A stretch of 64,000 nucleotides of DNA from assembly GCA_964540635.1 (NCBI GenBank), contig CAZINP010000004.1, positions 55,306 to 119,305 of the forward strand. The letters run 5' to 3'. The stretch's first letter is position 1. Each line of letters opens with the position of its first letter. The notes beneath the pieces are model-generated. The model did no database searches and was not told where the DNA came from. It saw only the letters and a list, made by a program, of their open reading frames with translations. The position numbers and the translations under genes were made by a program. Shown in pieces: positions 3,290-56,807 of the stretch. This DNA is from an uncultured Gammaproteobacteria bacterium (GTDB lineage: Bacteria; Patescibacteriota; Patescibacteriia; Buchananbacterales; UBA6539).

Positions 3290-3314
3290 GTTACCAAAGT
3301 GTTAAAATTATAGT

Positions 3315-37536: not shown

Positions 37537-37542
37537 TATTTT

Positions 37543-38559: not shown

Positions 38560-38662
38560 GGGGCAAAATCCCAAATCCCAAACCTCAAACAAATCTCAAA
38601 TTTAAAACTTCAAATTCCAAACCACCGTCTACTAACGTTTAGGATTTGGTGCTTTAATTATT

Positions 38663-39214: not shown

Positions 39215-39639
39215 CGATTGCAGCCGAAGTTTAATAGAATGTGTGGTCCAAAGCCGATAATTTTTCCCAGACAAAAGTTGCCGGCCTTGAATATCCCGTT
39301 TTTTGGTGGTTTGGGATTGTATAGACACAAAGCCGCCCCCTGATAAAGTGGATTAACGCTCCCACCTTTAATTTTTACGGCTCGAACTTCGTAAAGGCTG
39401 GCACATGTGCCATTAAGCGAACCGCAAACCGGACAAGTGCTTAGGCAGGTTCCCGGCGGCGGGTCTCCCGGATCAAGAGTGCATTTAATCGGCATGCTCA
39501 TAATTCTTAACCCCGTATCGGTGCCGGAAACAGCCTTGGCCGATATTGCCCAGGCTGCTAATAAAGCTACGACAAAAAGCGCTAAAATCGCAATAACGAT
39601 ATTAACTTTCTTTTTTAAAATTAAATCGGGAAAAATCAT
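39211..39639 (-). CDS. Membrane-anchored Cys-rich secreted hypothetical protein
   Basis: An N-terminal TM/signal anchor is followed by 12 Cys in 100 aa. Confidence 0.4.
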   Translation of the reverse strand: MIFPDLILKKKVNIVIAILALFVVALLAAWAISAKAVSGTDTGLRIMSMPIKCTLDPGDPPPGTCLSTCPVCGSLNGTCASLYEVRAVKIKGGSVNPLYQGAALCLYNPKPPKNGIFKAGNFCLGKIIGFGPHILLNFGCNR

Positions 39640-39659
39640 AAACTTATTATATCATATTT

Positions 39660-40508
39660 ATGAATATTATAGAACAAATTAAAAAAATATCTCAGACCTA
39701 CGATATAAAACCCTCAAGATCAAAGGGTCAAAATTTTTTAGTTAATTCCGAGATTATTGATACCATTGTTTCGGCTGCGGGGATTGAAAATGACGATACA
39801 ATTTTAGAGGTTGGTCCGGGACTTGGAATTTTAACAGAAGGTTTGATAAAAAAAGCCAAACGAATTGTCGCTGTTGAGTTGGACGAAAAAATATTTGATT
39901 TTTTGAAAGCTAAATTTGCCGGAGAAAAAAAATTAGAGTTGGCAAGGGGAGACATTCTTAAATCTTTTGCCGGCGATCTAGTTTCAGGGCCGTACAAGGT
40001 GGTGGCCAACATTCCTTATAACATTACTTCCATTCTGATAAAAAAGTTTTTAACTGAAAAAGATAAGCCATCGTCAATGGTCTTATTGGTTCAAAAGGAG
40101 GTTGCCCAAAGAATTTGCGCCCAACCGGGTCAGATGAGCCTTTTGGCAATTTCAGTAAAATTGTATGGACAGCCAAAAATTATAGATTATGTCAGCAAAG
40201 ATAATTTTTGGCCAAAACCCGAGGTGGATTCGGCAATTATAAAAATTGAAGCAATCAAAACAAATAAGAAAATTATTGATTTTTTAGCTGAGATAAGCGA
40301 AAATAATTATTGGCGGTTGGTTAAAGTTGGTTTTTCTTCAAAAAGAAAGCAATTGCAGCACAATTTATCTGCCGGCTTTAAGATAACCCAAGATGAGGCT
40401 AAGAATTGGCTTTCCGGCGCCGGTTTTGACCCAAAAATTAGAGCGCAAAACTTGTCGGTTGATGATTGGTTGGTTCTTGCTAAAAACGGAAAAAAATATT
40501 TTAAATAA
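39660..40508 (+). CDS. rsmA: 16S rRNA (adenine1518/1519-N6)-dimethyltransferase
   Basis: Motifs KGQNFLVN and LEVGPGLGILT are present. Confidence 0.85.
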   Translation: MNIIEQIKKISQTYDIKPSRSKGQNFLVNSEIIDTIVSAAGIENDDTILEVGPGLGILTEGLIKKAKRIVAVELDEKIFDFLKAKFAGEKKLELARGDILKSFAGDLVSGPYKVVANIPYNITSILIKKFLTEKDKPSSMVLLVQKEVAQRICAQPGQMSLLAISVKLYGQPKIIDYVSKDNFWPKPEVDSAIIKIEAIKTNKKIIDFLAEISENNYWRLVKVGFSSKRKQLQHNLSAGFKITQDEAKNWLSGAGFDPKIRAQNLSVDDWLVLAKNGKKYFK

Positions 40509-40523
40509 AATTATCAAAAGCCC

Positions 40524-40553
40524 TTGTCAAGATATAAGCATTTCTGATATAAT
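40524..40553 (+). promoter_or_regulatory. Sigma70-like promoter TTGTCA-18-TATAAT ahead of the giant-protein operon
   Basis: Boxes are read directly. Confidence 0.5.
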
Positions 40554-40625
40554 ATACCTAAGTTGATAATTAGCATTTTTAGGAAATAAAAAGGAGAAAT
40601 TTCCATACTATTATTTTTTAATAAA

Positions 40626-41459
40626 ATGGCTTTTGAAGGAAGAAAAAAAGATAATCGCACCATTTTAGAGGATATATATCATGAGGATATATCTGCCAAA
40701 TCGGCAAAAATCCAAATTAAGGAATATTTCAGTGATCCAAATAGAATTGAAAAATTGCTTTCGGCAAGTATTTTGTTTGTCGGCCTAGTTGCGTTGCTTC
40801 TAGGTCTTTTTCAGATAAAAAATAACATTTCGCCGGTAAAAAGGATTGCTCAAAAAACCAATGTCAATCAGGTTGATAACGAAGACTTGCTCGGTCTGAA
40901 GCAAAAAGATACGGATCAAGACGGGTTATCCGATTATGATGAGCTTAAAGTTTATAAAACCAGCCCCTATATTGCCGATACTGACTCCGATGGTTTTGAC
41001 GATAAAATTGAAATCGTTCAGGGGACTGATCCGGTTTGTCCGGAGGGTCAAAATTGTTTTGCCAACTGGACGGAAAATCCGCTAACCAACCCCAATGATC
41101 AGTCAAGTCAGGATCAGGCGCAAAATTTATCAGCGGATCAATTACGAGAAATGTTAATTCAGGCCGGCATGAGCGAGGAACAGTTGAGTCTTTTAAGTGA
41201 TGAAGAAATAGTGAATGCGTACCAACAAATTGCCGGCCAGCAAAGCACGCAAACAATTTCTGGTTCAAACGATTCTGGTCAATCAGCTTCGCTGACCCTG
41301 CCTTTACAGGAATTAAAAAATTTAACTCCAAATGAAATTAGGGAATTATTGGCCGAGAATACCGATATTACCGCCGAAACCCTTGCCAGTATTTCTGATG
41401 AAGAATTAATGAATTTAGTTAATGAAACCTTAGCTAACTATAAAGTCAATGGAAACTGA
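40626..41459 (+). CDS. Membrane-anchored protein with thrombospondin type-3-like calcium-binding repeats
   Basis: One TM helix is present. DTDQDGLSDYDE and DTDSDGFDD are DxDxDGxxDxxD repeats. It overlaps the start of the giant gene by 11 nt. Confidence 0.5.
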   Translation: MAFEGRKKDNRTILEDIYHEDISAKSAKIQIKEYFSDPNRIEKLLSASILFVGLVALLLGLFQIKNNISPVKRIAQKTNVNQVDNEDLLGLKQKDTDQDGLSDYDELKVYKTSPYIADTDSDGFDDKIEIVQGTDPVCPEGQNCFANWTENPLTNPNDQSSQDQAQNLSADQLREMLIQAGMSEEQLSLLSDEEIVNAYQQIAGQQSTQTISGSNDSGQSASLTLPLQELKNLTPNEIRELLAENTDITAETLASISDEELMNLVNETLANYKVNGN

Positions 41460-44400
41460 AAATAAAAATCAAATTGATAAAATGGAATTTGGATTTTATA
41501 AAAAATCAATTACTACCACTGTTTTAATCAGCATGGTTTTTTCGGTTGTTATGCCGGCCCTGCTTTTCCCGCTTGATCCGGTTTTGGCTGACAATAAGAT
41601 GAGTCCTTTGCCCGCAACTCAGCCCGGTTCGGCAGCTGCCGGGGCGGTACCTCAGCCAAAATTGAACAGCGAGACCATCAACGAGGCAAATAGGGCTGAA
41701 TCGGTAAAGGTTTATGACTCCAGCCTAATCAGCAAGGTTCGCGAAACAAATACAATTACTTCTTCATTTAAAAAGGGCGTTGAAGTAATTGCCGATACTT
41801 TTAATACCAGAGATTGGAGTTGGGAGAGCTTGAAGGATGCAGTTTATGTGGCCTCCAAGGAAGCTTTAAATTATTTATTGAATACTTTTGCTTACGATGT
41901 AGCCACCTGGTTGGCGTCTGGCGACAAGGGTCAGCAGCCGATGTTTTTTACTGACGGCTGGGGTCCATATTTGACCAATGTTTTAGATGAAGCCGGCGGT
42001 GTCTTTTTGGAGTCATTGGGTCAAGATTGGGGCAATTTCAATTTATGTAATCCGACTGTTTTTAATTTGAAAGTCAGCATCGGTTTGGGTATTGCTGAAA
42101 TGGACAAACCAAAGAAGCCATCATGCACTATTACGCAAATGGTAAACAATTGGGATAAGATGATCAGTGATGGCAGGATTTTAGACAATATTGATTTGAT
42201 GTTTGATTCCAAGAATAATGATTTTGGCATTACCCTGGATATTTTAGGTCGTCACGCGGAGTACAAAACGCAAGCGGCTTTGAATGCAACCAAAGATAGA
42301 GAAGAGGGTCAAGGTGCCAAGAGTGTGAGCGGAAAAATAGCTGATAAAATATTTACTCCCGCCTTTTTGGTCAGGGATGAGGCTCAATTAATGTTGGCCA
42401 AGGGTACAGTGGCAGACGAACAGGTCAATTACGGTGATATTTTCATGAATGCGGTTAGTAATTTTATTAATACTTTAGCCGGTAAGCTTTTAGATAGAAT
42501 ATTTAAAGAAGGTTTGGCGGCTTTGAGCGGCAGTAATAGTAGTAATAAAGATAGTGATAACAGCGATTTATTTGACGCCCTAAGGACAGGTGAAGAAATC
42601 GGCCGTAATCTTTATAATTTGTTAACAAATCAAGACGATGAGCTCTACACCGGCCAAACAGGCACAACCTTGTTTGCCGGCAAGCAAGCTTCTCAGGAAA
42701 GATATAGCGGTCTTCTACGTGCGGGTGTTAAAGAAACCGGACCATATGATGTCCTGACGAAATTTGTGGTCTGCCAGGATCCAAAGAACCCGGGCGTTGA
42801 TGAGTGTGTGATTGATCAAAAATTCCGATCGGCAATCTCTAAAAAAATTACTTTGCGTCAAGCCATCTCCGAAGGCCTGATTAATGGCGATGCCCCGTTT
42901 GGTTATAAAGCGGCAACCATTAAAGAGGGCATACCGTACAGAACCATCGTTATTTTACGCGCGCATCGTATTGTTCCAATCGGTTGGGAGTTGGCCGCCA
43001 GAGTGGCCAACGAGTTTGTGCCCCAAGAAACCTGGACTCTAAATAAGTTAATTGAAAATTATAATGTTTTAGGTAGTCCGTTTAAGGGTTTGGTTGATCC
43101 GAACTGGGTTTTGGAAGTGCCTTTGCATTATTGTAAGGCTCAGGGTTATGGCGCCAAGATTCTGTCTGACAAAATTGTGGCCGGAACTGATGCCAATAAT
43201 GACGGCGATTATGATGACGCGAGTGATTTGGCGCCGGGTCGAACCGTTTCCAGAGAACAGTATTGTGCTGACTTCCAGACCTGCATTCAGAAGAGTAGCG
43301 ATGGCGGCTGTTTATATTACGGCTATTGTACTGAAGAAAAACCGATTTGGGATTTGGATGGCAAAGAATGTAAATCACAATTTAACACTTGTTTAACCTT
43401 TCAAAAGGCCGGCGATAAAGTTGTCAGCTATTTGGAAAACACTTTGAATTATAATAATTGTAGTAAAGAAAACGCCGGATGTCAGTGGTATTGCAATGAA
43501 TTTAATACAATAAATAACATTTGGTCTTGTACGGCAGAAAGTGAAAAGGTGTTAAAGACTTGCAGTCAGACTAGTCGCGACGGCCAGGGTGTTGTCGGCT
43601 GCATTACAAATGCCAGCTGTGAAATGAATACCGGCGATACGGTTTGTAATGATTTGGTCAGCGGTATTAAGATGGTAATTTCTCAGCCTTGCAGCAATAC
43701 GACTAAGTGGTGGAATGCCGCCACTAATAAATGTACGGTTTCAGCTTCTTGTACAATTCCAAAAGGTGGCGTTTATTGCCAGGTTGGCGGTTGCGAAAAT
43801 CTGGAAAATTTATTGCCCAACCCGAGCTTTGAAACAGCTTCAACCACTTATGACGTGCCTTCGCCGGCTCTTGGCTGGTATGCCGATACGAATTACTTCA
43901 AGAAGGTTGGCAGCGCTCTGGATTATATTTATCGCGGCAAATCAAGTTTAAGATTTTATAATGCCGGCACCCTTGTCAGTGAGAATGCAATTTCCGGCAA
44001 CGTTTTACTCAAGACGGGAAGCTACACTTTATCCGGTTATATATTTAATAATTTGAATGTTGGTGAGATAAAGATTGCCGCTATTAATGCGGCCGGCAGC
44101 GAGATTAAATCCATTGCCTTGTCTACTGAGGGAAAACAGACTTGGTATCAGGCCAGTTTTGATTTTAGCGTTACGGCCGATACCCAGGTCAGAGTTAAAA
44201 TAAATGTTACCGATCCAAATGGCAACCAAGTGAGCGGTTCGGCCTGGTTTGATAATTTTAGAATTTCCCAAAGCTGTATTACCAACCCAATTACTTTAAC
44301 CATGGTTGGCGATGTTGAAAAGTCAGAAAGTAAGATTAATTTTGATCGCGATGTTAAAACTTGCCCTTCGGATGCGGCCGGTTGTACGGAATTTATTAGC

Positions 44401-47400
44401 CTTCAGCCAAATGGCAGCGTGAATTTGGTGCGAAACGCCAGTTTTGAGGACTGGTTAGATGGTACGCCTTTACCAAAGGGCTGGCGTTACGGTGAGCATT
44501 GGTCTGATAGCAATAATGAGATTTCAAGGTACACGCCCGGTGTTTTGGGTAGCAATGCTTTATTGATAAAGAATGGTTCAGATAATCATTATCGTGATTT
44601 CTCGACCGATCCGATTGTGGGCATGAAACCGAATACTTCTTATCGCGTTTCTTTCTATGTTAAAACCGATGATTCAGTGCCGGGTCAGAATTGGTATGCC
44701 GAAATTATTTCAGATAATAACCCCGATTATTATTGCGCTCAAAAGACAAGTCAAAATTGCGCCTCTGTTGCTTGTGATGCCGGCGACACTTGCATAAGCG
44801 ATTGGACGCCAATAGATGTGGGGGGCAGGCAAAAGTTTACTTTGACCAATAATTGGCGCCGAATCGTTTTTGATGTAATAACGACCAGATCGCTTGGTTA
44901 TGATTTCAAATTAAGTTTTGATAATGCGTTAGATGAAAATTCAACCATAATTATTGATGGTGTTCAAATTGAAGAGGTTGACACCAGAAACCCGATTGCT
45001 TCCGAATTTAGAAATTACGGCACTTCCAATTTATTTAATATTAAAAAAGCGCCGGATAATTTATCTTGTCGCGGTTACACCAAAACCAGACCAAGCCCAT
45101 ATGTTCTGCCGGGTGTTGGTTACGAACAGTGTGTGGGCGATACTTTGGTTTGGCGCAAATTCTGCGATGGCGGTGAAAATGCCGGCCAGCCTTGCGGCGG
45201 CACGGCTGATTGTCCCGGTGCCGAATGCCGGCCGGACAGCTGCAGTTCTGTTAATCCAAATGAATGTTGCCATGAAATTGACGCGCCAATTTGCTCTAAT
45301 TATTCAATGCTTTGCCAAGAAGACGAAGTCGGTTGTCAGTTATTTACGCCGGTTGGCCAAAGCGGTGCCGGCACCAAACTCTCGGCAGTTGCCCAGTTGA
45401 CTGATTATTGTCCGGCCGAATGTGTTGGCTATGAAGCCTTTTATCAGTCCGCTACGTTTTTGGAAAGACAACAAACTTTGGAATATTTTATTCCTAAAAC
45501 CGCCAAATCTTGTCCGGCCTCAGCCGTTGGTTGTGATGAATTTACCAATCTGGACGAAGTGGCCAAGGGCGGTGAGGGCAAAGAGTATTATCAGTATTTG
45601 CGTTTATGCCAAAAACCAACCGAACCGGCGGCTAATTGCACCTCGTTCTATGCTTGGCAGGGGAGCGATGAGGCTGGTTATCAATTAAAATCTTATTTGC
45701 TTAAAGCTGACACTAATAATACACCGGCTCGAGCAATTACCGATTTATCATTATTGCCTGATGCGTGGTGTTCTGACAAAACCCTTGATGCCACCGGCTT
45801 GCCCGAGTGTTGCAATGGTCCGGAAGATATAATTACCAATCCTTTCTGTAAAGAATTGATTGGTGCTGACAGTCAAATTAGTTATAGAATTTATTTGAAT
45901 ACTATCAGCTGTTCAAACGATTGCCATCCCTATCGCAAAACAGTTTACGGTGGCAGCACGGCTGACAATCAAACAAATTGCACCCAGACTAGCGGCAATT
46001 GGGATAGTAACTTAAATGCTTGTATTTACCAGGCTATTCCGAACGAAGGCTTAAAGTGCTCGTCGGCCAATGCCGGTTGCCGTGAATACCGTGGCAATAC
46101 CGCCGGCAATGTTTATATTGCTTTGAGCGATACCTTTGAAACCGGCACAACTGTTAATTGGTCTAATGGTGTTATATCCAGCGAAGCCCTTTCGGTTGGT
46201 GGTCACTCAATTAGATCTTATAGCAATAATTTGGAAACGATTATTAATGACCTAGGTTCTGTTTGCAACAAGGACAGCGCCACCTATGATTCGCAGTCAA
46301 ACCGCTGCACGACAACAACGGGTGATTGCAGCGTAGCAATTGGCCAGCGATATTGTGGCGTTATTGGCTCAAGTTTAACAGCCGGTAAGATGTATATTAT
46401 TGGTTTCTGGGCCAAAACTTCCAGCGATATTAGAAATTTGGATCTTAAGCTTAAGACCGCCGGCATAAGCGACAATACTCTTGGCAGTGTTTCTATCAAT
46501 AACGATTGGGCTTATTACTTGATTGGCCCGGTAACATATGACCAAACCAAAGACATTAACCTTTCGTCTAGATTAAATTTCTCTTCCGATGGTGATTTCT
46601 ATCTTGATAATTTAATCGTTAAAGAAGTTAATAATTTTGTTTACGCGATTAAGGGCTCCTGGAATACGCCGGCTTCTTGTGATACCAATCCGTTTTTGGC
46701 CGAACCGATTTTTGCGCCTCAATTTATGCTTGGCTGCAAACAGTATTTGGATTCGGATAATTTATACCATAATCTTAAATCGTTCTCCAATCTCTGCCGA
46801 GAAGAAGCCGTTGGTTGCCAGGCAATGATTGATACTTATAATTCAACATCACCTTTTGAGGTGAAAGCGCCGTTTGAAGATAAGCTTTCAACCGTTACCG
46901 TGCCGGAAGACAAACTGACCTATATTGTTAATAGAGCTGATGTCAGATGCAACGCTCAATATCAGGGCTGTCAGGCTTTTGGCGTGCCGACGATTTCATA
47001 TGATAGCTTGAGTAAGCCCGTTGTTACCGGCTACTCTCAGGCCTATTTAATTAACGATCCGGACGCTTACAACTCAATACTTTGTGCTCGAGGTGAAAAC
47101 GGTTGTGATGAGTATCAATCAGCCAACGGTTATTCATACTTTAAGGACCCGGGTACCCAGACTTGTGAGTGGAAATTGATCCCGAATAAAAATAAATACG
47201 GCTGGTTCAGAACCGATATGTCAAGTGATACGCCGAATTGTCCAATGGTAAATCCGCCGGTCGGGCAAGCGCATCCGGACGGCAGCAAGGGTTTTGTCGG
47301 TTTGTGTCCGGCCGATCAAAACACCTGCACGCTATTTATTGATCCGATTAGCGATATCAGTAAAAATCAAATTTTTAATTCTGATTTTTATGCCGACGTT

Positions 47401-50400
47401 GACAATGACAAAACACCCGATGGTTGGATAAAATCCGGCAGCACGGTTTACCAGAAAGTATCATTGTCTCATGACACCTTATATACTTTTTCGGTAGAGG
47501 TTGCTGACAAGACAAGCGTTGGCGGTTTGAGTGTAGTATTAACCAACTGTCTCGGTTTGAGATCGTTTGATAATTCAATGGTAATTTCCGGTTCAACCGC
47601 TCAAATCCCAATGGATTATATAGTTGGTGATACAAGAGAAATCAATAATTTAAATAATAACCGTGCTTATTCAGCCAGAATTTACTCGCCTGCTGATATG
47701 ACTTGTCGGCTGGAAATCAGTGGCTTAGACGGAACTAATCCAAAGTCAGATCTAAACAGTAAATTAAGCAAGGTTGCTTTTAGAGAAACCGGTCAGTATT
47801 ACACCCTGGCCAATACGGTTGATACTCTTACTTGCAACGGCGTGGTCAATCCCAATAACGGCTGTGTTTTGTTTAACGACAGAAGTTATGTTAATTATCA
47901 TCTGGGTGAAAATGATATTAGTTATTTGTCTTTCGATGCGGATGCTTCCGGTGTTGATGATAGGGGGCAGCCAATTAATAATGGCTTAGCTGTTAGTAAT
48001 CTTGGCCGAATGCCTGGTGATTCTAATTCGGTTCTAAAGGTTATACCCGATAGAACTTGTGCCACCTGGTTGGCTTGTACCGGTTCGGTTTCGGAAACTG
48101 ACGAAAAAAATGCTGACAAGAAATATTGTACTGATTTGGGTTTATGCGATCAGGCTGATGAAAACGGCAATTGCACAAATTTTGTTGTCACCAAAGAGGG
48201 CAACGATCGTCAAACTTATTTTGATCGCGAGTTAATAAAGAATTATAGCGGTTTTGCGCAGTCCGGTTTGGCTTTTGAAAGCGTGGCCGCTTCCTTGCCG
48301 GGTAATTTCTTGCCGGCTGAAATGCAGCAAGTTGGTGGAATCGCTTTCTCGCCCAGTACCAATTTTGAAACAATTACGGCCGGCGATTTTAGGCCTTATG
48401 GTTGGAATTTGGATTGTCCGCAAACAACAAATCCTCCGGTTAAAAATTTCTTAAAAACGGAATGGAAGCGCGAATATGCTCAAGTAATTACCAATCCGGT
48501 TTCAGCTCAACAAGAGGGACTTTCTTCGGCTGCTCCCGAAGGTACGGCATTTGTTAAACTGACCGGCCCATATGTTATTAGTTCAGAAAAAATTGATGTT
48601 AACGGCAATACCAAATATACAGTTTCTGCTTATATCAATACAGAAAAATTGATAACCGGGCAGGCTAGAATTGTAATTGAAGAATATGATCTATCAAGCT
48701 CAGTGCCAATTAAAACAATTGGACTTTCTGGTCCTCAACTGGAACAGTTAAGGCTTGACTCTTCGCAGAAGTGGACCTTTAAAATTGCCGAATTTATAAC
48801 AGAAACAGGAGCTTCAAGCATTAAGATTAAGTTGATGAATTTTAATGAGAAAAGCGATCGATTTAGAAACCCTTGTACCAACACTGAAGGTCGTATTCAT
48901 GAAATTTTAGGCAGTTCTTATTTTGATGATATTAAGGTTAAACCAAGTTTGGAAGTTTCAAGAGATTCAAATGGCAGTATTTTTGTGCCGCCGACTTGCC
49001 GCGTGTATCCGGAAAGCGACTCATTGTCTTGTGATTATTACAGTGATAAGGGTTATCATTTCCGCGGTTGGCTTGGATATTGCCTTGAGCCCGATCCGGC
49101 CAATTCAGCTCAATGTTTGATGTGGTGGCCGGTTGAGTTGATTCAGGGCGGATTTATCAGCGAAGAACCGTCAGTGGCTCAGCGCCCATTGTATTATTGC
49201 TTGGGTGCCAAGGAAAGCCATTATCGCTATCGCCAATGCGTTTTTGAAGACGGTGAAATGTGCGCCTCGCTCAAGCGACCGTCTTCAGACAAATCGGCCA
49301 GAACCAGAAATATTGAGTGGACCGTACCCGGTTCTTGGCGGGTTCAAAGTTGGCAGGTTGAGGGTTTGAGTGTAGCCTCATCAATCAGTGATTGTGGCGC
49401 CTCTGATCAATGTGGTATAAATTTTGGATTATTTAAACTGATTAAAAATCCAACCATTCCTAATAGTTATTTCGGTTCAGGCATTAGTGCTGATTTGGTT
49501 TATGATAGCGATGGACTGTTGGAAAAAATTAAATTTGAAATAGTCGGCCCGAATTGTTTGTGTGCGGATATGGATGTGGTTTTACAAGTTGTCAGTTCGT
49601 GGTGCCAATATGTGGCTCAGACCATTACCCCTTATGGACAAAACAAGGCTTGGTGGGAAAGAGTATCTAATAACTCCGGTCAGCTTTTTGCCGTGCCCGG
49701 CGTTGGTTATACCAATCTATTTGATTATCCGCCATTTGGTGCTTTGGTGCCGCCTTATCCGGTTGATAATCCGGCTGTTTGGGATTTGAGATCGTCTGGG
49801 GACACTTATTTTGCTCCTCTTAGGGTTGAAGAACCGCAAACCGGAAATTTTGCCGATCCGTACCAGGCTAGAGCCGGCTTACCTTATGCTTGTTCACAGC
49901 TTTCAGCCGCATTTGGCGATACTAGTTGTACCTTGCCGACGCTTAATCGTGCGACCAGCAGTTCAATTGTTTATAATAAAGATGTTGCTCAGGCTCAAGA
50001 TTCTTTGAAACGTATTTTTGCCAAGAGCTACGAAACTTATCAGTTTCAGGGTGACGGTGTTTGCAAGACCAGTTCCGATCAAGTGGGCGGCAAAGAGTGT
50101 GCTTGTCCGGAAAGCACTTGTGGTTTGGAAGCCAATGTAACCTTTAATACTTGTAAGAATACCGGCGCGGTTTGTGAGGTTGGACAATTTGCCTGTATGG
50201 ATATTTCCGATATCGGTCAAACATTAATTATGTTTATTGTTGAAAGCGGATATACAAGTGGACCCAATATTGTTGCCATGATTGTTGGCGCGGTGGTTCA
50301 GGTGGTATTGGAATTTTTAACCGCTTGCTCACCAAAACCTTGCGACTCAACTTGTGATGCCGGGGAAGGTCAGTGTATTCCGTTGCCGCAATATTTAACT

Positions 50401-51729
50401 AATTTTTACGGCTTAAGCAGTGATGATCCGGGCGCATTTTCGATTGTTTGGAATTTAATTTTTGGTAATCTTTTTAGTTCAATATTTGCCTTAGGCGAAG
50501 ATCCATCTTCTGATAGTATTGCTGATATAATTCAAGATGCAGTTGATTCTGGGGGATCAAATGAGTATTTATTAGAGGGACAGGGCGCTCTTGGGTCACT
50601 TGGTGCTGTTGGTTTAGTTTTAGGTAATCAGCTGGAAGCTTTTACTGGGAATTATTGTTCCCTGACGGATTTCCGTTGTCAGTCAGGAACAAATGATGGG
50701 TCGCGCTGTTGTTTCTTCTCTTCTTGTCAGGCAAAACAAAATGTCACTTATCGCTGCTTAGCCGGCCCGAATAAGGGCATGATCTGCGATCCGGATGAGG
50801 ATAACTGTGGTACTAGCGCCGACTGCAAAATTAGAACTGCAAACGAATCATATTTGCCAATTAACGATAATCAGCCCGGTGTTTTGCAGGCGGCTTTGCC
50901 ATGGAATCCACCAACAGGACTATGTACCAATAACAGCAGGCCGGAATTTGTTTGCAAATCAGGGCTTAATCGTAATAATTCATGCTTGTCCAACAATGAT
51001 TGTCCGAGCTTTGTTGGTGTTTGCATTAAGAATGCCCAAAAGGTTATGGTTTGCCGCGATAAGAATGGCGATGAAAGACCTTCAAGCGACTGTAATACTG
51101 AAGATGACAAAAATAAAGAATGCAGAACTGACGACGCGTCTTGTGTTCTTAAATCAGACATGACTACATTGGCGTCTTCGTTGTCGGGAATGGATTATTG
51201 CGCGGTAGCCCCGGCCGTTACATCCGTTAAGGTTAATAATGCCGCTAATGCCGAATTATCTTTGTATGGTGGTGACACGGCATCTCTTACCTTTACGGTT
51301 AAGATTAATCCTCAGCAGTTGCCTTTGACCAGCTATACCATTGACTGGGGTGATGCCAAGAAGACTTCACTTTCCGGTCAGTCTCTTTTAAGCCGTGAAA
51401 ATTCCACAAAACCGTTTTCAGCCAGCCATACCTATTCTTACTGGGAATTAAGGGCACTTGACTCAAAGAGCAGCGACGGAACTAATAGCGATGTGAAATG
51501 TCGCACCCGAGACGCTCAAGGCAAATGCTGCCACGCAAACGAAGATTTCTGCCGTGTTTTGCCCAGGGTTCAAATAATTGATAATTGGAACTGGTGCAAC
51601 AACGGTAACGGCCAAAGCGGTTATTATGGTTCAGACTGTGCGGCTGAAGCCCAAGATAACAAAACCAATCCGGCCGCGGCCGCTAATGCTTGGATGCCTT
51701 ACGCCAAGGAACTGCGCATATATCCTTAA
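41449..51729 (+). CDS. Giant (3426 aa) Cys-rich secreted/surface protein with repeated CBM4/9-like jelly-roll modules and a C-terminal membrane anchor
   Basis: A single uninterrupted ORF with an N-terminal signal/TM. Five modules begin with N(P/A)SFE...GW (aa ~790, ~990, ~1560, ~1975, ~2300). There are >150 Cys. A hydrophobic segment lies at aa ~2920-2960. A PKD-like YTIDWGD motif sits near the C-terminus. Confidence 0.75.
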   Translation: METENKNQIDKMEFGFYKKSITTTVLISMVFSVVMPALLFPLDPVLADNKMSPLPATQPGSAAAGAVPQPKLNSETINEANRAESVKVYDSSLISKVRETNTITSSFKKGVEVIADTFNTRDWSWESLKDAVYVASKEALNYLLNTFAYDVATWLASGDKGQQPMFFTDGWGPYLTNVLDEAGGVFLESLGQDWGNFNLCNPTVFNLKVSIGLGIAEMDKPKKPSCTITQMVNNWDKMISDGRILDNIDLMFDSKNNDFGITLDILGRHAEYKTQAALNATKDREEGQGAKSVSGKIADKIFTPAFLVRDEAQLMLAKGTVADEQVNYGDIFMNAVSNFINTLAGKLLDRIFKEGLAALSGSNSSNKDSDNSDLFDALRTGEEIGRNLYNLLTNQDDELYTGQTGTTLFAGKQASQERYSGLLRAGVKETGPYDVLTKFVVCQDPKNPGVDECVIDQKFRSAISKKITLRQAISEGLINGDAPFGYKAATIKEGIPYRTIVILRAHRIVPIGWELAARVANEFVPQETWTLNKLIENYNVLGSPFKGLVDPNWVLEVPLHYCKAQGYGAKILSDKIVAGTDANNDGDYDDASDLAPGRTVSREQYCADFQTCIQKSSDGGCLYYGYCTEEKPIWDLDGKECKSQFNTCLTFQKAGDKVVSYLENTLNYNNCSKENAGCQWYCNEFNTINNIWSCTAESEKVLKTCSQTSRDGQGVVGCITNASCEMNTGDTVCNDLVSGIKMVISQPCSNTTKWWNAATNKCTVSASCTIPKGGVYCQVGGCENLENLLPNPSFETASTTYDVPSPALGWYADTNYFKKVGSALDYIYRGKSSLRFYNAGTLVSENAISGNVLLKTGSYTLSGYIFNNLNVGEIKIAAINAAGSEIKSIALSTEGKQTWYQASFDFSVTADTQVRVKINVTDPNGNQVSGSAWFDNFRISQSCITNPITLTMVGDVEKSESKINFDRDVKTCPSDAAGCTEFISLQPNGSVNLVRNASFEDWLDGTPLPKGWRYGEHWSDSNNEISRYTPGVLGSNALLIKNGSDNHYRDFSTDPIVGMKPNTSYRVSFYVKTDDSVPGQNWYAEIISDNNPDYYCAQKTSQNCASVACDAGDTCISDWTPIDVGGRQKFTLTNNWRRIVFDVITTRSLGYDFKLSFDNALDENSTIIIDGVQIEEVDTRNPIASEFRNYGTSNLFNIKKAPDNLSCRGYTKTRPSPYVLPGVGYEQCVGDTLVWRKFCDGGENAGQPCGGTADCPGAECRPDSCSSVNPNECCHEIDAPICSNYSMLCQEDEVGCQLFTPVGQSGAGTKLSAVAQLTDYCPAECVGYEAFYQSATFLERQQTLEYFIPKTAKSCPASAVGCDEFTNLDEVAKGGEGKEYYQYLRLCQKPTEPAANCTSFYAWQGSDEAGYQLKSYLLKADTNNTPARAITDLSLLPDAWCSDKTLDATGLPECCNGPEDIITNPFCKELIGADSQISYRIYLNTISCSNDCHPYRKTVYGGSTADNQTNCTQTSGNWDSNLNACIYQAIPNEGLKCSSANAGCREYRGNTAGNVYIALSDTFETGTTVNWSNGVISSEALSVGGHSIRSYSNNLETIINDLGSVCNKDSATYDSQSNRCTTTTGDCSVAIGQRYCGVIGSSLTAGKMYIIGFWAKTSSDIRNLDLKLKTAGISDNTLGSVSINNDWAYYLIGPVTYDQTKDINLSSRLNFSSDGDFYLDNLIVKEVNNFVYAIKGSWNTPASCDTNPFLAEPIFAPQFMLGCKQYLDSDNLYHNLKSFSNLCREEAVGCQAMIDTYNSTSPFEVKAPFEDKLSTVTVPEDKLTYIVNRADVRCNAQYQGCQAFGVPTISYDSLSKPVVTGYSQAYLINDPDAYNSILCARGENGCDEYQSANGYSYFKDPGTQTCEWKLIPNKNKYGWFRTDMSSDTPNCPMVNPPVGQAHPDGSKGFVGLCPADQNTCTLFIDPISDISKNQIFNSDFYADVDNDKTPDGWIKSGSTVYQKVSLSHDTLYTFSVEVADKTSVGGLSVVLTNCLGLRSFDNSMVISGSTAQIPMDYIVGDTREINNLNNNRAYSARIYSPADMTCRLEISGLDGTNPKSDLNSKLSKVAFRETGQYYTLANTVDTLTCNGVVNPNNGCVLFNDRSYVNYHLGENDISYLSFDADASGVDDRGQPINNGLAVSNLGRMPGDSNSVLKVIPDRTCATWLACTGSVSETDEKNADKKYCTDLGLCDQADENGNCTNFVVTKEGNDRQTYFDRELIKNYSGFAQSGLAFESVAASLPGNFLPAEMQQVGGIAFSPSTNFETITAGDFRPYGWNLDCPQTTNPPVKNFLKTEWKREYAQVITNPVSAQQEGLSSAAPEGTAFVKLTGPYVISSEKIDVNGNTKYTVSAYINTEKLITGQARIVIEEYDLSSSVPIKTIGLSGPQLEQLRLDSSQKWTFKIAEFITETGASSIKIKLMNFNEKSDRFRNPCTNTEGRIHEILGSSYFDDIKVKPSLEVSRDSNGSIFVPPTCRVYPESDSLSCDYYSDKGYHFRGWLGYCLEPDPANSAQCLMWWPVELIQGGFISEEPSVAQRPLYYCLGAKESHYRYRQCVFEDGEMCASLKRPSSDKSARTRNIEWTVPGSWRVQSWQVEGLSVASSISDCGASDQCGINFGLFKLIKNPTIPNSYFGSGISADLVYDSDGLLEKIKFEIVGPNCLCADMDVVLQVVSSWCQYVAQTITPYGQNKAWWERVSNNSGQLFAVPGVGYTNLFDYPPFGALVPPYPVDNPAVWDLRSSGDTYFAPLRVEEPQTGNFADPYQARAGLPYACSQLSAAFGDTSCTLPTLNRATSSSIVYNKDVAQAQDSLKRIFAKSYETYQFQGDGVCKTSSDQVGGKECACPESTCGLEANVTFNTCKNTGAVCEVGQFACMDISDIGQTLIMFIVESGYTSGPNIVAMIVGAVVQVVLEFLTACSPKPCDSTCDAGEGQCIPLPQYLTNFYGLSSDDPGAFSIVWNLIFGNLFSSIFALGEDPSSDSIADIIQDAVDSGGSNEYLLEGQGALGSLGAVGLVLGNQLEAFTGNYCSLTDFRCQSGTNDGSRCCFFSSCQAKQNVTYRCLAGPNKGMICDPDEDNCGTSADCKIRTANESYLPINDNQPGVLQAALPWNPPTGLCTNNSRPEFVCKSGLNRNNSCLSNNDCPSFVGVCIKNAQKVMVCRDKNGDERPSSDCNTEDDKNKECRTDDASCVLKSDMTTLASSLSGMDYCAVAPAVTSVKVNNAANAELSLYGGDTASLTFTVKINPQQLPLTSYTIDWGDAKKTSLSGQSLLSRENSTKPFSASHTYSYWELRALDSKSSDGTNSDVKCRTRDAQGKCCHANEDFCRVLPRVQIIDNWNWCNNGNGQSGYYGSDCAAEAQDNKTNPAAAANAWMPYAKELRIYP

Positions 51730-51735
51730 TAAAAT

Positions 51736-54700
51736 ATGAAAAATATTTTAAGAAAAATCAAAAGAAATAATTGGCACAAAAAGTTTTTCATTTTTTGCTT
51801 GCTTTTAGGTATTAGTTTGATTTTTGTTAATTCTGCTTTTGCCCAAGCCGGAGCAGCAGCCGGAGCCGCAGCAGCGGCTGTTAATACCCCGGAAGACACG
51901 GAGCCGGGCGTAATTGCCAATTTTGTTTATCAATTTTTTGTCGGAGTTTTTGCCGGGATAATCCGTTTTGAGGGCTGGATTCTGGTGATTTTAACCAGAA
52001 TTTTTATTGGAATTGCAAAATATAACGGCTTTGTCAATTCACCGGCCGTGGTTACTGGCTGGACTCTGGTCAGAGATGTGGCCAACATGTTTTTTATATT
52101 GGTAATGTTGGCTATTGCCTTAGGTACGATTTTGCATATTGAATCTTACAACTTCAAACGGCTTTTACCTAAAGTTTTGATCATGGCTGTTTTAGTTAAT
52201 TTTAGCCGTACAATTTGTGGTCTAGCCATTGATTTTGCCCAGGTGATAATGATGACTTTTGCTGTTGGTTTTGCCAGTATCGTCGGGGCGGGTGATTTAA
52301 TGGCGACCTTACACATTACTGAAATGCTTAATGCTTCAGCTCATCTTGATAAAGATTATAGCATTGACTGGAGTGGTGCTTTTGTTACCGGTTTATTGGC
52401 AGTTATTCTTTTATTGGTGGCGGTGATTACAGTTTTGGTTATGGTAGTTGTGATCACTATGCGTATGATAATGCTTTGGTTGTTGGTAGTACTATCACCT
52501 CTACCATTTGTTTTAACCGCTTTTCCGGCCGGTCAAAAATATGCTCAGCAATGGACGCAAGAGTTTTTTAAATATGTCATTGTCGGTCCGGTTTTGGCTT
52601 TCTTTTTATGGCTTTCCCTGGCGGTTTCTTCTACCGGTAAATTGGATGGTATGATTAATGACAATACCGTGACATCGGAATTGAGCAATGAAAATCTTCA
52701 GAGAGGTGAAAATTTTACTGAATACACTAGTCAACAAAGGAATACGGCGGTTTTTACCGCCATTGGTAATCCTGATAATTTTTTGGCTTTTTTGATAGGT
52801 ATTGGTATGCTGCTTGGCGGTTTGATGATTACCCAGCAGCTGGGTGTGGCCGGCGGGGCGTTTGCCGGACAGATGTCTAATGCTATCAGGCAAAAAGGTT
52901 TATCTGCAATTTTAGCGCCGGCTAAATTGGGCAAATGGGGAGCGGGTCAGGCTTGGGCCGGAACCAAGATTGCCGCCAAATCTCCTTTTCAATATATTGG
53001 CCGTAGGGTTAATGAAGGAATCTCTGAAGGCAGGATTAGCGCTCTTTGGAATCCGGCGGCAATGGTTAGGGGTTGGCAAGCCAGAAGAAAAGAATTATAT
53101 GAGGGTTCAGAACAAGCAGCAACGGCCGGTGCCCAAGAATGGATTGAAAAGAAATTTACCGGAACCTCAATGCCAAGAAGATCAATGTTGGCTCACTCGG
53201 AAGAGTCTAAGTTTGCCAAGGAATTTAGCTTTATGAATAAGAATGAAATGGCTAAAACGGCAATTGATTTACTGGAAGCGCCTGATACGGCTGAAGTCAG
53301 ATCAAAACGTCGCGCTTTAATTCGGGCGGCCGGGGAGCAGGGTTATATTGATGATATTATGGGTACTAAAGAAATGATTGATCATGTTAAGAAATCTTTT
53401 AATGATGCTTATAATGGCACTGGTCAATTTGCAGGCGATAGCGACGAGGTCAAAGAGGCCCGCAGAAAATATTTTGATGAATCTGATATTAAGAATAGAG
53501 TGGATAATGGCGAATGGCACGGTTTTGATCAGGTTCATATGTTTTTGGAGAGTTTTGTTGGACGTGATCGTAATGGAAAATCAAATGAGGATGGGCTAAA
53601 CACGATTGATTCTCTGGAAGAAATCGGTATGCGTATTGGTCACGCCGAATACGCCGGCCATGCCAGTTACGATGCTAAAAAGGGTACAATGGTTATGACG
53701 ACTCTGCAAAAAGGCGACTTTAATGCCCATCAAAAAGCCGAAACTGAGTTTAACAAATTAAAAGGCCGCAATCGTATTCCAACTGCGCCCCATGCTTTGT
53801 TTAATTTTAACAGCGACAAAAAAGGCAATTTTTTTGCTTCGCTTGATCGATATTCTCTATCGAATATGATCATGGCTTTTAAGGGTCAGGGTAAGAATAT
53901 TGCCGAACACGGCCAAAACCGCAACTTGAACGTCTTATTTGGCGGTGAAATGTCCGGCATGATATGGTCAAAAGATAAAAGTGGCAAGGTTGAAACTCGT
54001 GAAGTTAAAGATGCCAACGGTAAAAAAGTCGGTGAAACAAAAGTTGTCGATCTGACCAGATTAAGCGGCGAGGCTTTAAAAAAACAATTGGAAACCATGG
54101 CCGCCTTTATGTCAATTGCCGATAAAGACGGCGTTTCGGCTGCTTGGAAAAAAGTGGGTGGTGACGGAGAAACCGCTCATTTTAAGATTAAAGGGGAAAA
54201 TGGCGAGGATGAATATATTGATCACAAGACTTTAATGGACAGGTATCCGATTAATGAGACGCTGAGTCAACTCGGTAGTACTGAAGAAGAGGTGGCTCAA
54301 TCAGTTGATCAATCAGCTGGCGCCGGTTCAAATGTTCCAAACGAAGATGAAGACGAAGTTTGGGATAATTTACCAGATGAAGAAAAGAACAGTAGATTTG
54401 TAAATGCTATGCAAGAAATGAATGATGAGAGAAGGGCTCAAGGTGCAGCGCCGGTTGCTGATCGAGATGAAGTGATAAAATATGCTAAAGAAAAAGCCTA
54501 TAAAGAAACTATTTTGAGAGAAACGGCTGATAGCGCCCAGAATCCAGAAGATTTTGCGAATTTGGGCAATTCAATATCTCAAGCCCTAAGAGACGGCTTG
54601 GACTCTCAAGGTATTATTAATGCTGTCAACGGCTTGGAGCGTATTTTAAACAACCTTAATTCTCAAATCAACGGCCTTTCCGAGGGCAGGACCAAAAATT

Positions 54701-54891
54701 CGGCTGAAAGTGATTTTGATAAACTTTCTAGGTCTTTTGGAAATTTCCGTTCAGCGGCTGAAGTTGGCAATCAGAATCAGGTTGATACACTGCTTAGAGC
54801 CATAAATAAATCGGTTAAAGACTTGGCCTTCAAAGTAAAACAAGAAGAGGGTGGCAATCAAGCTCAAGATAATAGGCCGGATAATACCTAA
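51736..54891 (+). CDS. VirB6/TrbL-like polytopic membrane protein with a ~700-aa hydrophilic C-terminal extension
   Basis: A signal peptide is followed by 6-8 TM helices in the first ~300 aa and then a long charged tail. It is coupled 7 nt after the giant gene. The VirB6 assignment rests on topology and context. Confidence 0.5.
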   Translation: MKNILRKIKRNNWHKKFFIFCLLLGISLIFVNSAFAQAGAAAGAAAAAVNTPEDTEPGVIANFVYQFFVGVFAGIIRFEGWILVILTRIFIGIAKYNGFVNSPAVVTGWTLVRDVANMFFILVMLAIALGTILHIESYNFKRLLPKVLIMAVLVNFSRTICGLAIDFAQVIMMTFAVGFASIVGAGDLMATLHITEMLNASAHLDKDYSIDWSGAFVTGLLAVILLLVAVITVLVMVVVITMRMIMLWLLVVLSPLPFVLTAFPAGQKYAQQWTQEFFKYVIVGPVLAFFLWLSLAVSSTGKLDGMINDNTVTSELSNENLQRGENFTEYTSQQRNTAVFTAIGNPDNFLAFLIGIGMLLGGLMITQQLGVAGGAFAGQMSNAIRQKGLSAILAPAKLGKWGAGQAWAGTKIAAKSPFQYIGRRVNEGISEGRISALWNPAAMVRGWQARRKELYEGSEQAATAGAQEWIEKKFTGTSMPRRSMLAHSEESKFAKEFSFMNKNEMAKTAIDLLEAPDTAEVRSKRRALIRAAGEQGYIDDIMGTKEMIDHVKKSFNDAYNGTGQFAGDSDEVKEARRKYFDESDIKNRVDNGEWHGFDQVHMFLESFVGRDRNGKSNEDGLNTIDSLEEIGMRIGHAEYAGHASYDAKKGTMVMTTLQKGDFNAHQKAETEFNKLKGRNRIPTAPHALFNFNSDKKGNFFASLDRYSLSNMIMAFKGQGKNIAEHGQNRNLNVLFGGEMSGMIWSKDKSGKVETREVKDANGKKVGETKVVDLTRLSGEALKKQLETMAAFMSIADKDGVSAAWKKVGGDGETAHFKIKGENGEDEYIDHKTLMDRYPINETLSQLGSTEEEVAQSVDQSAGAGSNVPNEDEDEVWDNLPDEEKNSRFVNAMQEMNDERRAQGAAPVADRDEVIKYAKEKAYKETILRETADSAQNPEDFANLGNSISQALRDGLDSQGIINAVNGLERILNNLNSQINGLSEGRTKNSAESDFDKLSRSFGNFRSAAEVGNQNQVDTLLRAINKSVKDLAFKVKQEEGGNQAQDNRPDNT

Positions 54892-54902
54892 AAAAATATA
54901 AA

Positions 54903-56144
54903 ATGATTGATCAGCGTTTAGAAAAAATAAAAACATATTCAGCCGAAGCCCTCTTTGATGAAACAGTATATGAAATGGTTAGCGGTTTTGTCGATGATTT
55001 GATTTCTAATATGCAAATTGGGGAGGCAAAAGAGCTATTTTTCTTTTTGACTAATCTTTTGGCTAAGGTTCCAATATCGTTGGAAACCGCCAATTGGCGT
55101 AAAAAGTATGAATCAGTTATTTCAAAAATAAGATGGATTGCTTTTCCGTTTATATCAGATCAGGATGTTGAAAAGCTTTTTAGTAACCAATTAATTGAAG
55201 CGATTAAGAATGAGTACGATATTCAAAATAAGATCTATGGATATTTTAGAATCAGTCTTGGTGATGAAGTTGCGATCTCGTCCAAAAGAAGACTGATCTT
55301 GAGTTCCTTAAAGAATAATAATGAAGATATCGGTAAAAAAGAGATAGTTATACCCGGGATTGATGCTAAATTTCCGTCTCAAATTAAAAACTGGATAAGG
55401 GATTTTGAGCAGTCAAGCTCAAGGGAAAAAAGGATAAAGAGAATTGCAATTTTGGAATATTTGAATTTGAGCAATAATTTAAAAGGACTATCGGTTTCGG
55501 ATAGAGATATATTGCGTCAAATTTTGGAAATATATGAAGATTTAAGATTTGTTTTTATCGATCGTGAAAACGTTGAGGCCGTACATATCTTACCCGAATT
55601 TTTACGCGATACTAACGGCGATATCCGAAATAATAATAAAGAAGAAATTGAATTGAATCAAAATATTATTCTTGCCGCCTATCAGGGAGATATGAAACAA
55701 CAAAAAGCGATTGAGGCTCAGCAACAAAAGTTGAAAAGTTCGGTTGGAACAGACCCGAGTCGTTTACAAGCTGAATTTTATAAATCGGTCCAAAATCAAG
55801 ATTTAAATGGAACGGTCGCGGCCATAAAACTACTCGCCCTCAATAATCAACTTTTGGATTTTATAAAAAATGATCAAAAATTAAATAAATTTTTAACCGC
55901 CACTTGGCTTAAGCTTTACGGTCAGGCTGTGGCCGATGAATTTGCCAAAAATCCAATCCAGCCCAAGTTTGTCAGATTGTTTTTGAAGTATGTGCTATTT
56001 GAACGTTTGAAAATGAGCGAATCAGATGCGGGTCGAATCGCTTTGCAAATCGGCAATATTTTGGTTTCACAGGGTAAATTAGAGTATAATCGAATGGCAT
56101 ATTTTGATGTAGCTGGCAGGCAATTCAAGTGGTTTGAAGATTAG
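54903..56144 (+). CDS. Hypothetical cytoplasmic protein (413 aa), last gene of the operon
   Basis: Only the ORF and its tight coupling support it. No recognisable motifs. Confidence 0.4.
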   Translation: MIDQRLEKIKTYSAEALFDETVYEMVSGFVDDLISNMQIGEAKELFFFLTNLLAKVPISLETANWRKKYESVISKIRWIAFPFISDQDVEKLFSNQLIEAIKNEYDIQNKIYGYFRISLGDEVAISSKRRLILSSLKNNNEDIGKKEIVIPGIDAKFPSQIKNWIRDFEQSSSREKRIKRIAILEYLNLSNNLKGLSVSDRDILRQILEIYEDLRFVFIDRENVEAVHILPEFLRDTNGDIRNNNKEEIELNQNIILAAYQGDMKQQKAIEAQQQKLKSSVGTDPSRLQAEFYKSVQNQDLNGTVAAIKLLALNNQLLDFIKNDQKLNKFLTATWLKLYGQAVADEFAKNPIQPKFVRLFLKYVLFERLKMSESDAGRIALQIGNILVSQGKLEYNRMAYFDVAGRQFKWFED

Positions 56145-56213
56145 GGGATATTTCAAAATATGGTAGTTTGATGTATTCAACATAGCGCGAATAATTATTT
56201 AATAATTTCGCAT

Positions 56214-56642
56214 ATGTTGAAAGCGCCAAATCTCAAATTACAAGTTACAAACAAATTAAAAATACCAAGCACCGTAAATGATAATTCAAAATATTATGAT
56301 TTGGAGTTAAGAACCTTGGAATTTGGAAAGAGAATTATTAGAATGAGCCGGGCATTATCTGTCAATCCTGTTAATCGAGTATTGATAAATCAAATTGTTC
56401 GTTCCGGGACTTCTATCGGCGCAAATTATCGTGAGGCAAACGAGACTGAAACCAAAAAAGATTTTCTATTCAGGTTGAGAATAGCAAGGAAAGAAGCGAA
56501 AGAAACAATTTATTGGTTGAATTTGATTATTGAGGCAAATGTTGGCTTGGAGTTAAGAATCAAGCCATTGGTTGTTGAAGGTCAAGAGTTATTAAGAATA
56601 TTGGCTGCAATTATTGAAAAGTCAAAGCATAAAAAAGTTTGA
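56214..56642 (+). CDS. Four-helix-bundle protein (23S rRNA intervening-sequence protein family)
   Basis: SGTSIGANYREANE...FLFRLRIARKEAKETIYWLNL matches the family signature. The gene is flanked by inverted AAATCTCAAAT repeats. Confidence 0.6.
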   Translation: MLKAPNLKLQVTNKLKIPSTVNDNSKYYDLELRTLEFGKRIIRMSRALSVNPVNRVLINQIVRSGTSIGANYREANETETKKDFLFRLRIARKEAKETIYWLNLIIEANVGLELRIKPLVVEGQELLRILAAIIEKSKHKKV

Positions 56643-56807
56643 GTTTGGAATTTTTAGCTTGTTGCTTGTTTGGAAATTGAGATTTGAGATTTAAAATTTT
56701 GTATAAAAATCTATTAATTATTAATAATAAAGATTATTTACCTGCTTTATTTGGGGAAACAGGCTAAGCGCCGCTATTGGGGAAGACGGCTAAGAAAGGA
56801 TAAAAAC

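Follow-up and report, generated by a model that had tools for sequence, protein, structure and literature searches.

A giant protein with CBM4/9-like modules and a VirB6 protein with an exchangeable tail in a type IV secretion locus of a Patescibacterium

Four same-strand (+) open reading frames (ORFs) lie within positions 40626-56144 of a 64-kb stretch of DNA (contig CAZINP010000004.1; the whole stretch is called the window here) from an uncultured Patescibacterium. They encode a small membrane protein (gene 1), a predicted surface protein of several thousand amino acids (aa; gene 2, the giant), a VirB6 protein with a long hydrophilic tail (gene 3), and a protein without a hydrophobic segment (gene 4). 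The window is chromosomal, with housekeeping genes (MetK, KsgA, LeuRS), and it also holds pilin, PrgI and VirB4 genes of a type IV secretion system (T4SS). Two properties of the block are of main concern. First, the tail of VirB6 is exchanged between strains jointly with the N-terminal half of gene 4, the two forming one variable cassette; second, the giant gene is linked to VirB6, a link that is real but loose. The block was singled out by a first-pass annotation of the window, which found it plausible for an episymbiotic lifestyle. The organism is indeed an episymbiont-type Patescibacterium, the closest homologues being named Ca. Buchananbacteria. Feature coordinates are collected in Table 1.

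The gene block and the giant protein

The four genes are closely packed, with an 11-nt overlap between genes 1 and 2, a 6-nt gap between genes 2 and 3, and an 11-nt gap between genes 3 and 4. The first-pass annotation gave 11, 7 and 11 nt; both 11s are right, and the 7 is replaced by the measured 6. It also called the genes translationally coupled, a description taken from the spacing alone. The ATG behind the 6-nt gap is kept in two close strains (L005, L087). Upstream of gene 1 lies a sigma-70-like promoter site that, as judged by its match to the consensus (11 of 12 positions), is the top-scoring site of the region, and a scan of the region revealed no convincing terminator between the four genes. 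Because the spacing is tight and there is a single strong promoter-like site (40524-40553), co-transcription of the four genes as an operon is plausible. An Rfam scan returned two tRNAs and nothing else.

The product of gene 1 passes the Pfam TSP3_bac profile (PF18884) marginally, with 25.6 bits against a cut-off of 25, and has two Asp-rich D-x-D-x-D-G motifs at aa ~95-125. In many loci a gene 1 homologue lies directly upstream of the giant gene.

The giant ORF is real and not an artefact of assembly. A database search with the protein gave 21 related proteins of 2527-3808 aa, those that carry an organism name being assigned to Ca. Buchananbacteria or Patescibacteria. About 20 full-length orthologues come from independent assemblies, and full-length orthologues with the same module order are present on contigs of up to 601 kb. 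The gene is free of direct and tandem DNA repeats, and L005, which comes from another sample, has a copy of equal length that is 99% identical. The uninterrupted 3426-aa frame described at first pass is thus genuine. The window and L005 copies differ by 237 synonymous and 48 non-synonymous codons, and the gene is therefore under purifying selection.

The same pair of strains shows a patchy density of single-nucleotide polymorphisms over window positions 36742-52947, from 0 to 98 per 500 nt, and the non-synonymous changes in the giant are concentrated at aa 276-340. This mosaic pattern suggests frequent recombination in the population.

Near its N-terminus the giant has a hydrophobic segment (aa 20-48), in line with the signal or transmembrane segment that had been proposed for it, and an N-terminal hydrophobic stretch is present in 18 of the 21 relatives. 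It contains 136 Cys (4.0%), mostly between the modules described below, as the earlier mention of Cys-rich linkers implied, with maxima of 9-12 per 100 aa at aa 601-800 and 1201-1300. One module is significant in Pfam (CBM_4_9, PF02018, aa 992-1097; E 6e-8, 33.5 bits, cut-off 25.9). When the protein was scanned in pieces, Pfam gave a second CBM_4_9 stretch at aa ~790-930 and weak signals near aa 1612 and 2380. A profile seeded on the Pfam-significant module and iterated over the giant orthologues settles on five CBM4/9-like modules, modules 3 to 5 depending on this in-family profile; five are likewise detected with it in 16 of the 21 relatives. The first-pass annotation had arrived at at least five modules starting with N(P/A)SFE. 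The number stands by the iterated profile (two modules by Pfam). The motif does not hold for all of them, being found at the start of two modules only (aa 791, 996), and a third module starts NSDFY. Taken together, the sequence features support a giant protein that would be membrane-anchored and disulfide-rich and would carry CBM4/9-like modules.

The family is conserved in three parts, aa ~100-700, aa ~1300-2600 and the C-terminal domain. The AlphaFold model of aa 95-790 has a mean pLDDT of 53 and is confident only at aa ~434-564 and ~704-784. A Foldseek search of the PDB with this low-confidence model gave nothing below E 3.7 and no VirB5 match, and a homology search with the N-terminal region gave only three matches. 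Towards the other end of the protein, the first-pass annotation placed a hydrophobic anchor at aa 2920-2960. Hydrophobic segments are indeed present there (aa 2936-3015), and their role as an anchor is unproven because a comparable stretch is found in only about half of the relatives. The C-terminal domain has a conserved D-W-G-D...H-x-Y motif, which had been called PKD-like. Membership in PKD was considered and rejected, the short motif alone resembling that family: Pfam PKD gave no match in the C-termini of 17 orthologues (E up to 0.1), and a profile search with the domain against PDB sequences gave nothing.

A further motif, C-x6-G-C-x2-[F/Y/M], occurs 12 times in aa 620-2140 of the giant, compared with 2.0 +/- 1.5 times in shuffled sequence. 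It often flanks the CBM-like modules, just before or after them, and corresponds to no known family.

VirB6 and the tail/gene 4 cassette

The first-pass annotation called gene 3 TrbL/VirB6-like, and this identification is borne out by profile and fold. The N-terminal 420 aa score 27.3 bits with Pfam TrbL (PF04610), above the cut-off of 25.9, while the full protein scores 25.7; the profile matches 11 of the 36 family members scanned. The AlphaFold model of gene 3, built from 41 sequences, has a mean pLDDT of 76. In a Foldseek search of the PDB, its top six matches are all R388 TrwI/VirB6 (probability 0.92-1.00, target-normalised TM-score 0.37-0.46, sequence identity 12-17%). In R388, TrwI/VirB6 is part of a stalk complex with TrwJ/VirB5 (PDB 7o3v, 8rt9), whereas no VirB5 homologue was detected here. 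The start of VirB6 is called at an internal TTG in two public assemblies (L005 14975-15140; L087 1585-1750), which cuts off the basic start of the protein together with most of the signal-like segment. In this N-terminal region (window 51736-51900) an Ala/Gly-rich linker behind the signal segment shows an indel polymorphism.

Extended VirB6 proteins are defined by five or more hydrophobic helices and a large hydrophilic C-terminal domain (PMC12857230), and gene 3 has seven predicted helices followed by a tail of ~650 aa. The median length in its family is ~900 aa. The tail had been described as charged and roughly 700 aa long. It is long and charged, with 90 K+R and 105 D+E in aa 401-1051, though somewhat shorter than stated. 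The model shows it as a folded domain, with pLDDT values of mostly 75-97 across aa 440-860; this part forms helical bundles and small hairpins, and long helices follow. No specific resemblance to a solved fold emerged, and sequence searches of the PDB with the tail gave no meaningful match.

The tail most likely lies on the cytoplasmic side. A count of seven predicted helices behind an N-out signal segment would place it there, as would the basic character of the stretch behind the last helix (9 K+R, 2 D+E) and the absence of Cys from the 651 aa of the tail, compared with 12-136 Cys in the exported proteins of the locus.

The cassette is most clearly seen by comparing the window with L005. The two DNAs are 97-99.5% identical as far as position 52947 and, further on, from 56699. 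In the interval, positions 52948-55673 show zero DNA similarity, and 55674-56150 are 75% identical. At the protein level, VirB6 aa 47-396 are identical at 348 of 350 positions and the tails at ~20%; gene 4 is ~22% identical over aa 1-230 and ~80% in its C-terminal part. The window type of tail is found in proteins whose membrane domain is merely 44-50% identical to that of the window, and is absent from closer relatives (membrane domains 59-97% identical). Family-wide, some pairs with membrane domains 90-97% identical have no detectable tail similarity, and where the membrane domains are 70-80% identical, 54% of the pairs show tail similarity that is slight or absent.

The two halves of the cassette vary in concert. 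Among 69 loci (2346 pairs, which are non-independent, so that effect sizes can be read and p-values have no meaning), the similarity of the tail correlates with that of the gene 4 N-terminal half with a Spearman coefficient of 0.58, and with a partial coefficient of 0.57 when the membrane domain is taken into account. The membrane domain correlates instead with the gene 4 C-terminal half (0.73) and hardly with the tail (0.11). The gene 4 N-terminal half is similar in 98% of the tail-similar pairs and in 20% of the others. This cassette had been missed at first pass, and we know of no description of an extended-VirB6 tail that co-varies with a soluble downstream partner. The gene 4 family comprises 783 cluster representatives. 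It has no relatives in Pfam, NCBIfam, PADLOC or the PDB, including searches of the PDB and Pfam with a 41-member profile.

A diversity-generating retroelement was considered, on account of an Avd-like gene beside the variable region, and rejected, as neither a template/variable repeat pair nor a reverse transcriptase was found. The gene, of the 23S-rRNA-intervening-sequence type, lies in an insertion or deletion of ~540 nt of the window relative to L005 (56151-56698). Homologues of this gene are found at other positions of the same locus in two further loci (L011, L061). The indel and the shifting positions suggest a small gene that is mobile or often lost.

The secretion locus and its conservation

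The remaining T4SS genes lie on both sides of the block. The three pilin genes score 24.2, 31.6 and 29.5 bits with the T4SS_pilin profile (cut-off 26.6), and the core that they have in common is 68-82% identical in DNA. The pilins are unusually long (324-385 aa), with a C-terminal extension after the core and 12-18 Cys each. The orthologues of the TrsD-like protein carry PF26593. The class of the VirB4 ATPase, monoderm (MPF-FATA), was assigned by profile match. Two hypothetical proteins belong to the same set. One, h437, has no membrane segments and no family match, and its homologues range from ~365 to 700 aa. The other, h201, follows VirB4 in nearly all related loci and has one N-terminal membrane segment and a weak match (24 bits) to the Rv0361 C-terminal type; it could be a VirB8-type component, which is rarely detected in Patescibacteria surveys. 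ComF begins at 63039.

Table 1. Features of the window, in window coordinates
Feature	Position	Strand	Description
DsbA-like thiol-disulfide oxidoreductase	27974-28723	+	directly upstream of pilin array
VirB2-like pilins (three, tandem)	28727-29701, 29709-30824, 30856-32013	+	Cys-rich C-terminal extensions
Sigma-70-like promoter site	40524-40553	+	TTGTCA-18-TATAAT with extended TG; upstream of gene 1
Gene 1	40626-41459	+	277 aa, single-pass membrane protein; transmembrane segment aa 40-68; TSP3-type calcium-binding repeats aa ~92-139
Gene 2 (giant)	41449-51729	+	3426 aa, Cys-rich surface protein (predicted)
Giant, N-terminal hydrophobic signal/anchor	41506-41592	+	aa 20-48
Giant, conserved N-terminal region	41746-43548	+	aa ~100-700; mostly helical in low-confidence model
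CBM4/9-like module 1	43807-44211	+	aa 787-921; Pfam piece scan and iterated profile
CBM4/9-like module 2	44410-44856	+	aa 988-1136; Pfam-significant
CBM4/9-like module 3	46261-46590	+	aa 1605-1714; iterated profile; Pfam E 0.26
CBM4/9-like module 4	47356-47565	+	aa 1970-2039, N-terminal part only; iterated profile
CBM4/9-like module 5	48361-48840	+	aa 2305-2464; iterated profile; Pfam CBM_4_9_1 E 0.009
Giant, hydrophobic segments	50254-50493	+	aa 2936-3015 (aa 2936-2962 and 2997-3015)
Giant, C-terminal domain	51166-51726	+	aa ~3240-3426; conserved D-W-G-D...H-x-Y motif
Gene 3 (VirB6)	51736-54891	+	1051 aa
Gene 3, N-terminal domain	51736-52947	+	aa 1-404; signal-like segment and seven predicted helices, VirB6/TrbL fold
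Gene 3, tail	52948-54891	+	aa ~405-1051; folded (model), Cys-free, hydrophilic; variable cassette begins here
Gene 4	54903-56144	+	413 aa
Gene 4, N-terminal half	54903-55673	+	aa 1-257; variable, co-varies with VirB6 tail
Gene 4, C-terminal part	55674-56144	+	aa 258-413; conserved, tracks VirB6 membrane domain
23S-rRNA-intervening-sequence-type gene	56214-56642		four-helix bundle; within 56151-56698 indel
h437	58014-59327	+	437 aa, Lys/Glu/Pro-rich hypothetical; before PrgI in nearly all related loci
PrgI/VirB3-like membrane protein	59362-59820	+	36.6 bits, cut-off 27
TrsD-like protein	59817-60497	+	resembles VirB4 N-terminal domain; NF041427 E 8e-8, below curated cut-off
VirB4 ATPase	60487-62391	+	monoderm CD1110 type; NF045971 365.5 bits, cut-off 325
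h201	62401-63006	+	201 aa, single-pass membrane protein; downstream of VirB4

The conservation of this arrangement was followed in the best 80 of 557 loci with VirB6-domain relatives, one genome per species. The recurrent order is KsgA, gene 1, giant, VirB6, gene 4, (MetK), h437, PrgI, TrsD-like, VirB4, h201, ComF. The first-pass annotation had proposed the co-occurrence of giant, VirB6 and VirB4 genes as a check. Upstream sequence of 8 kb or more is available for 51 of the loci, and 38 of these have a giant homologue upstream of VirB6 on the same strand; the order from PrgI to VirB4 is kept in dozens of loci. The giant is directly adjacent to VirB6 (<250 nt) in 6 of these 38.

The first-pass annotation regarded the block as not a described system. 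The VirB6 belongs, however, to the published Patescibacteria-type T4SS (Wang et al. 2023, PMC10633639; Quinonero-Coronel et al. 2025, PMC12102498), as the pilins, PrgI, the TrsD-like gene and VirB4, which the first-pass annotation had left unconnected with the block, lie in the same window. The likeness extends to the monoderm type of VirB4, to the tandem and divergent VirB2-like pilins, to the chromosomal location and to the presence nearby of KsgA and ComF, as published for class ABY1. A relaxase or coupling protein, which the published cluster lacks, was not found among the larger ORFs of the 64-kb window that were scanned. Unlike the published system, the window locus adds a recurrent giant CBM protein with its TSP3 companion, and its VirB6 tail and gene 4 form an exchangeable cassette. 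The survey of Quinonero-Coronel et al. (2025), with thousands of genomes, did not detect adhesins such as PrgB, and giant proteins, a partner gene downstream of VirB6 and variability of the VirB6 tail are unmentioned in it (PMC12102498).

Proposed function and alternatives

The explanation that we favour, and consider on balance probable, is that the block is the upstream part of a Patescibacteria T4SS, with a giant adhesin and a docking module made of the tail and gene 4. The four genes would belong to a chromosomal secretion system of a Buchananbacteria-like organism, a system of the type that derives from the conjugation machinery of single-membrane bacteria. Gene 3 is the VirB6 channel subunit, and its folded 650-aa tail would lie in the cytoplasm. 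Gene 4, also cytoplasmic, would bind the tail through its N-terminal half, and its conserved C-terminal half would touch a component of the machine that does not vary. Together, the tail and the half that binds it would probably make up a module for docking or specificity where the channel opens to the cytoplasm. On the outer side, the giant would be anchored via its N-terminus and project a disulfide-bonded chain of ~3400 aa with five CBM4/9-like beta-sandwich modules. It would most likely bind glycans of the host envelope and thereby keep the pilus-bearing secretion apparatus held to the host. The disulfides would stabilise the giant, and a DsbA-like gene heads the pilin array. Gene 1 encodes the conserved companion of the giant, a small membrane protein with calcium-binding TSP3 repeats. 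The first-pass annotation spoke of a surface adhesion apparatus tied to a T4SS-like channel; the T4SS VirB6 and the conserved linkage uphold part of this, and the attachment role may be added as a proposal.

Several points weigh against this explanation. The docking role is a guess because neither the tail nor gene 4 resembles a known family or fold. The placement of the tail in the cytoplasm has moderate strength only, because the loop at aa 133-146 of gene 3 violates the positive-inside rule, and the topology was taken from helix count and charge bias. In most related loci the giant and VirB6 are 0.5-7 kb apart with other genes between them, 13 of the 51 loci have no detectable giant homologue upstream, and one distant relative has KsgA, the TSP3 gene and the giant without an adjacent VirB6. 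Moreover, synteny by itself is weak evidence for a shared function here because the housekeeping genes MetK, KsgA and LeuRS lie in the same conserved block. The explanation as a whole is based on sequences and models.

The points on linkage favour at the same time the alternative that survives best, namely, that the giant and its TSP3 companion form a general envelope or glycan-capture structure (for example, a surface layer, an adhesin for hosts or particles, or a polysaccharide binder) independent of the T4SS, their adjacency being a frozen gene order in small, rarely rearranged genomes. The low count of close adjacency fits this as well, and in Southlakia essential polysaccharide-binding adhesins were described as envelope proteins additional to the T4SS cluster (PMC10633639). 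However, the same-strand linkage is found in 75% of the loci, with VirB6 membrane domains 36-60% identical to that of the window, the 6-nt gap between the giant and VirB6 is kept in close strains, and one strong promoter-like site precedes gene 1, the giant and VirB6. A T4SS-independent giant is possible, though we hold it to be the less likely case. A bolder reading retains the T4SS link and goes further: the tail/gene 4 module would select the substrates or the partner cells of the channel, in effect replacing the coupling protein, for which no gene was found near this locus, and the giant would be an adhesin in the role of VirB5 or PrgB. This is tentative and rather doubtful. If true, the host range and strain identity of episymbionts would be tied to one locus.

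The cassette itself invites comparison with polymorphic toxin-immunity loci such as those of contact-dependent inhibition (CDI) and Rhs. As in those, there is a conserved N-terminus (here a membrane domain, which could serve in trafficking), a replaceable C-terminus, a co-varying downstream gene, and cassette types spread across lineages. The tail could then be an effector or toxin that is cleaved and delivered into hosts or competitors, with gene 4 as its immunity protein or chaperone, and delivery of effectors has been proposed for the Patescibacteria T4SS (PMC11665869). However, no toxin or enzyme family was recognised in the tail itself, among 36 family members scanned at full length, or in the Pfam domains precomputed for 120 homologues, and PADLOC and NCBIfam gave no matches to defence or toxin families for genes 1, 3 and 4 and their neighbours. 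In the present case the tail sits on a channel subunit, is as large as 650 aa and, in the model, is built of helical bundles, and a cleavage site is not evident. The second half of gene 4 is conserved and goes with the membrane domain, unusual behaviour for an immunity protein. These results make the toxin-immunity explanation improbable.

Less probable still is that the variable tail acts as a self/non-self or exclusion determinant that blocks attack or docking among siblings. The precedent is F TraG, in which a VirB6-like membrane domain is followed by a large C-terminal domain that recognises TraS in a plasmid-specific manner (PMC7555446), and the discrete tail types common to several lineages do look like allelic specificity classes. 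However, TraG carries its domain in the periplasm and TraS sits in the inner membrane, whereas the tail here appears to be cytoplasmic and gene 4 lacks a hydrophobic segment. Finally, an artefact in the giant ORF or at its junctions through collapsed repeats or a chimeric join, the doubt that the first-pass annotation had itself raised, is vanishingly improbable given the repeat-free gene, the second-sample copy, the orthologues and the even GC content across the region.

The secretion machine is of a known kind, and the giant, presumably sugar-binding protein in its locus and the swappable VirB6 tail appear to be new. A literature search, from which subscription journals were mostly outside, found no giant protein from Candidate Phyla Radiation (CPR) bacteria linked to a T4SS and no description of VirB6-tail variability. 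Giant surface proteins are known from Vampirococcus lugosii (PMC8080830). They too are membrane-associated, several thousand residues long and equipped with interaction domains, and were proposed to act in host recognition. However, they are not tied to a T4SS and their domains are of the WD40, PKD, integrin and fibronectin kinds, whereas the giant of the window belongs to a Cys-rich CBM4/9 family with conserved synteny. Similarly, in F TraG and the VirB6 paralogues of Rickettsiales a large hydrophilic domain stands C-terminal to a polytopic VirB6 domain, but no solved protein resembles the tail here in sequence or fold. The contribution of these hydrophilic domains is stated to be unknown (PMC12857230; PMC7648143). 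The exchange of the cassette hints that specificity resides in this part of the machine, which bears on this question.

In the one genetically tractable Patescibacterium the T4SS is essential, yet what it does has been called completely unknown (PMC11665869). The present locus offers a testable entry point into this system through two handles: a conserved giant protein, predicted to bind glycans, that is encoded with a channel subunit, and a tail-partner pair that is exchanged as a unit.

Elsewhere in the window, positions 820-3228 contain two adjacent matches to SAICAR synthetase, the second of which is fused to an AIR carboxylase domain. To our knowledge, purine-synthesis genes are unusual in Patescibacteria.

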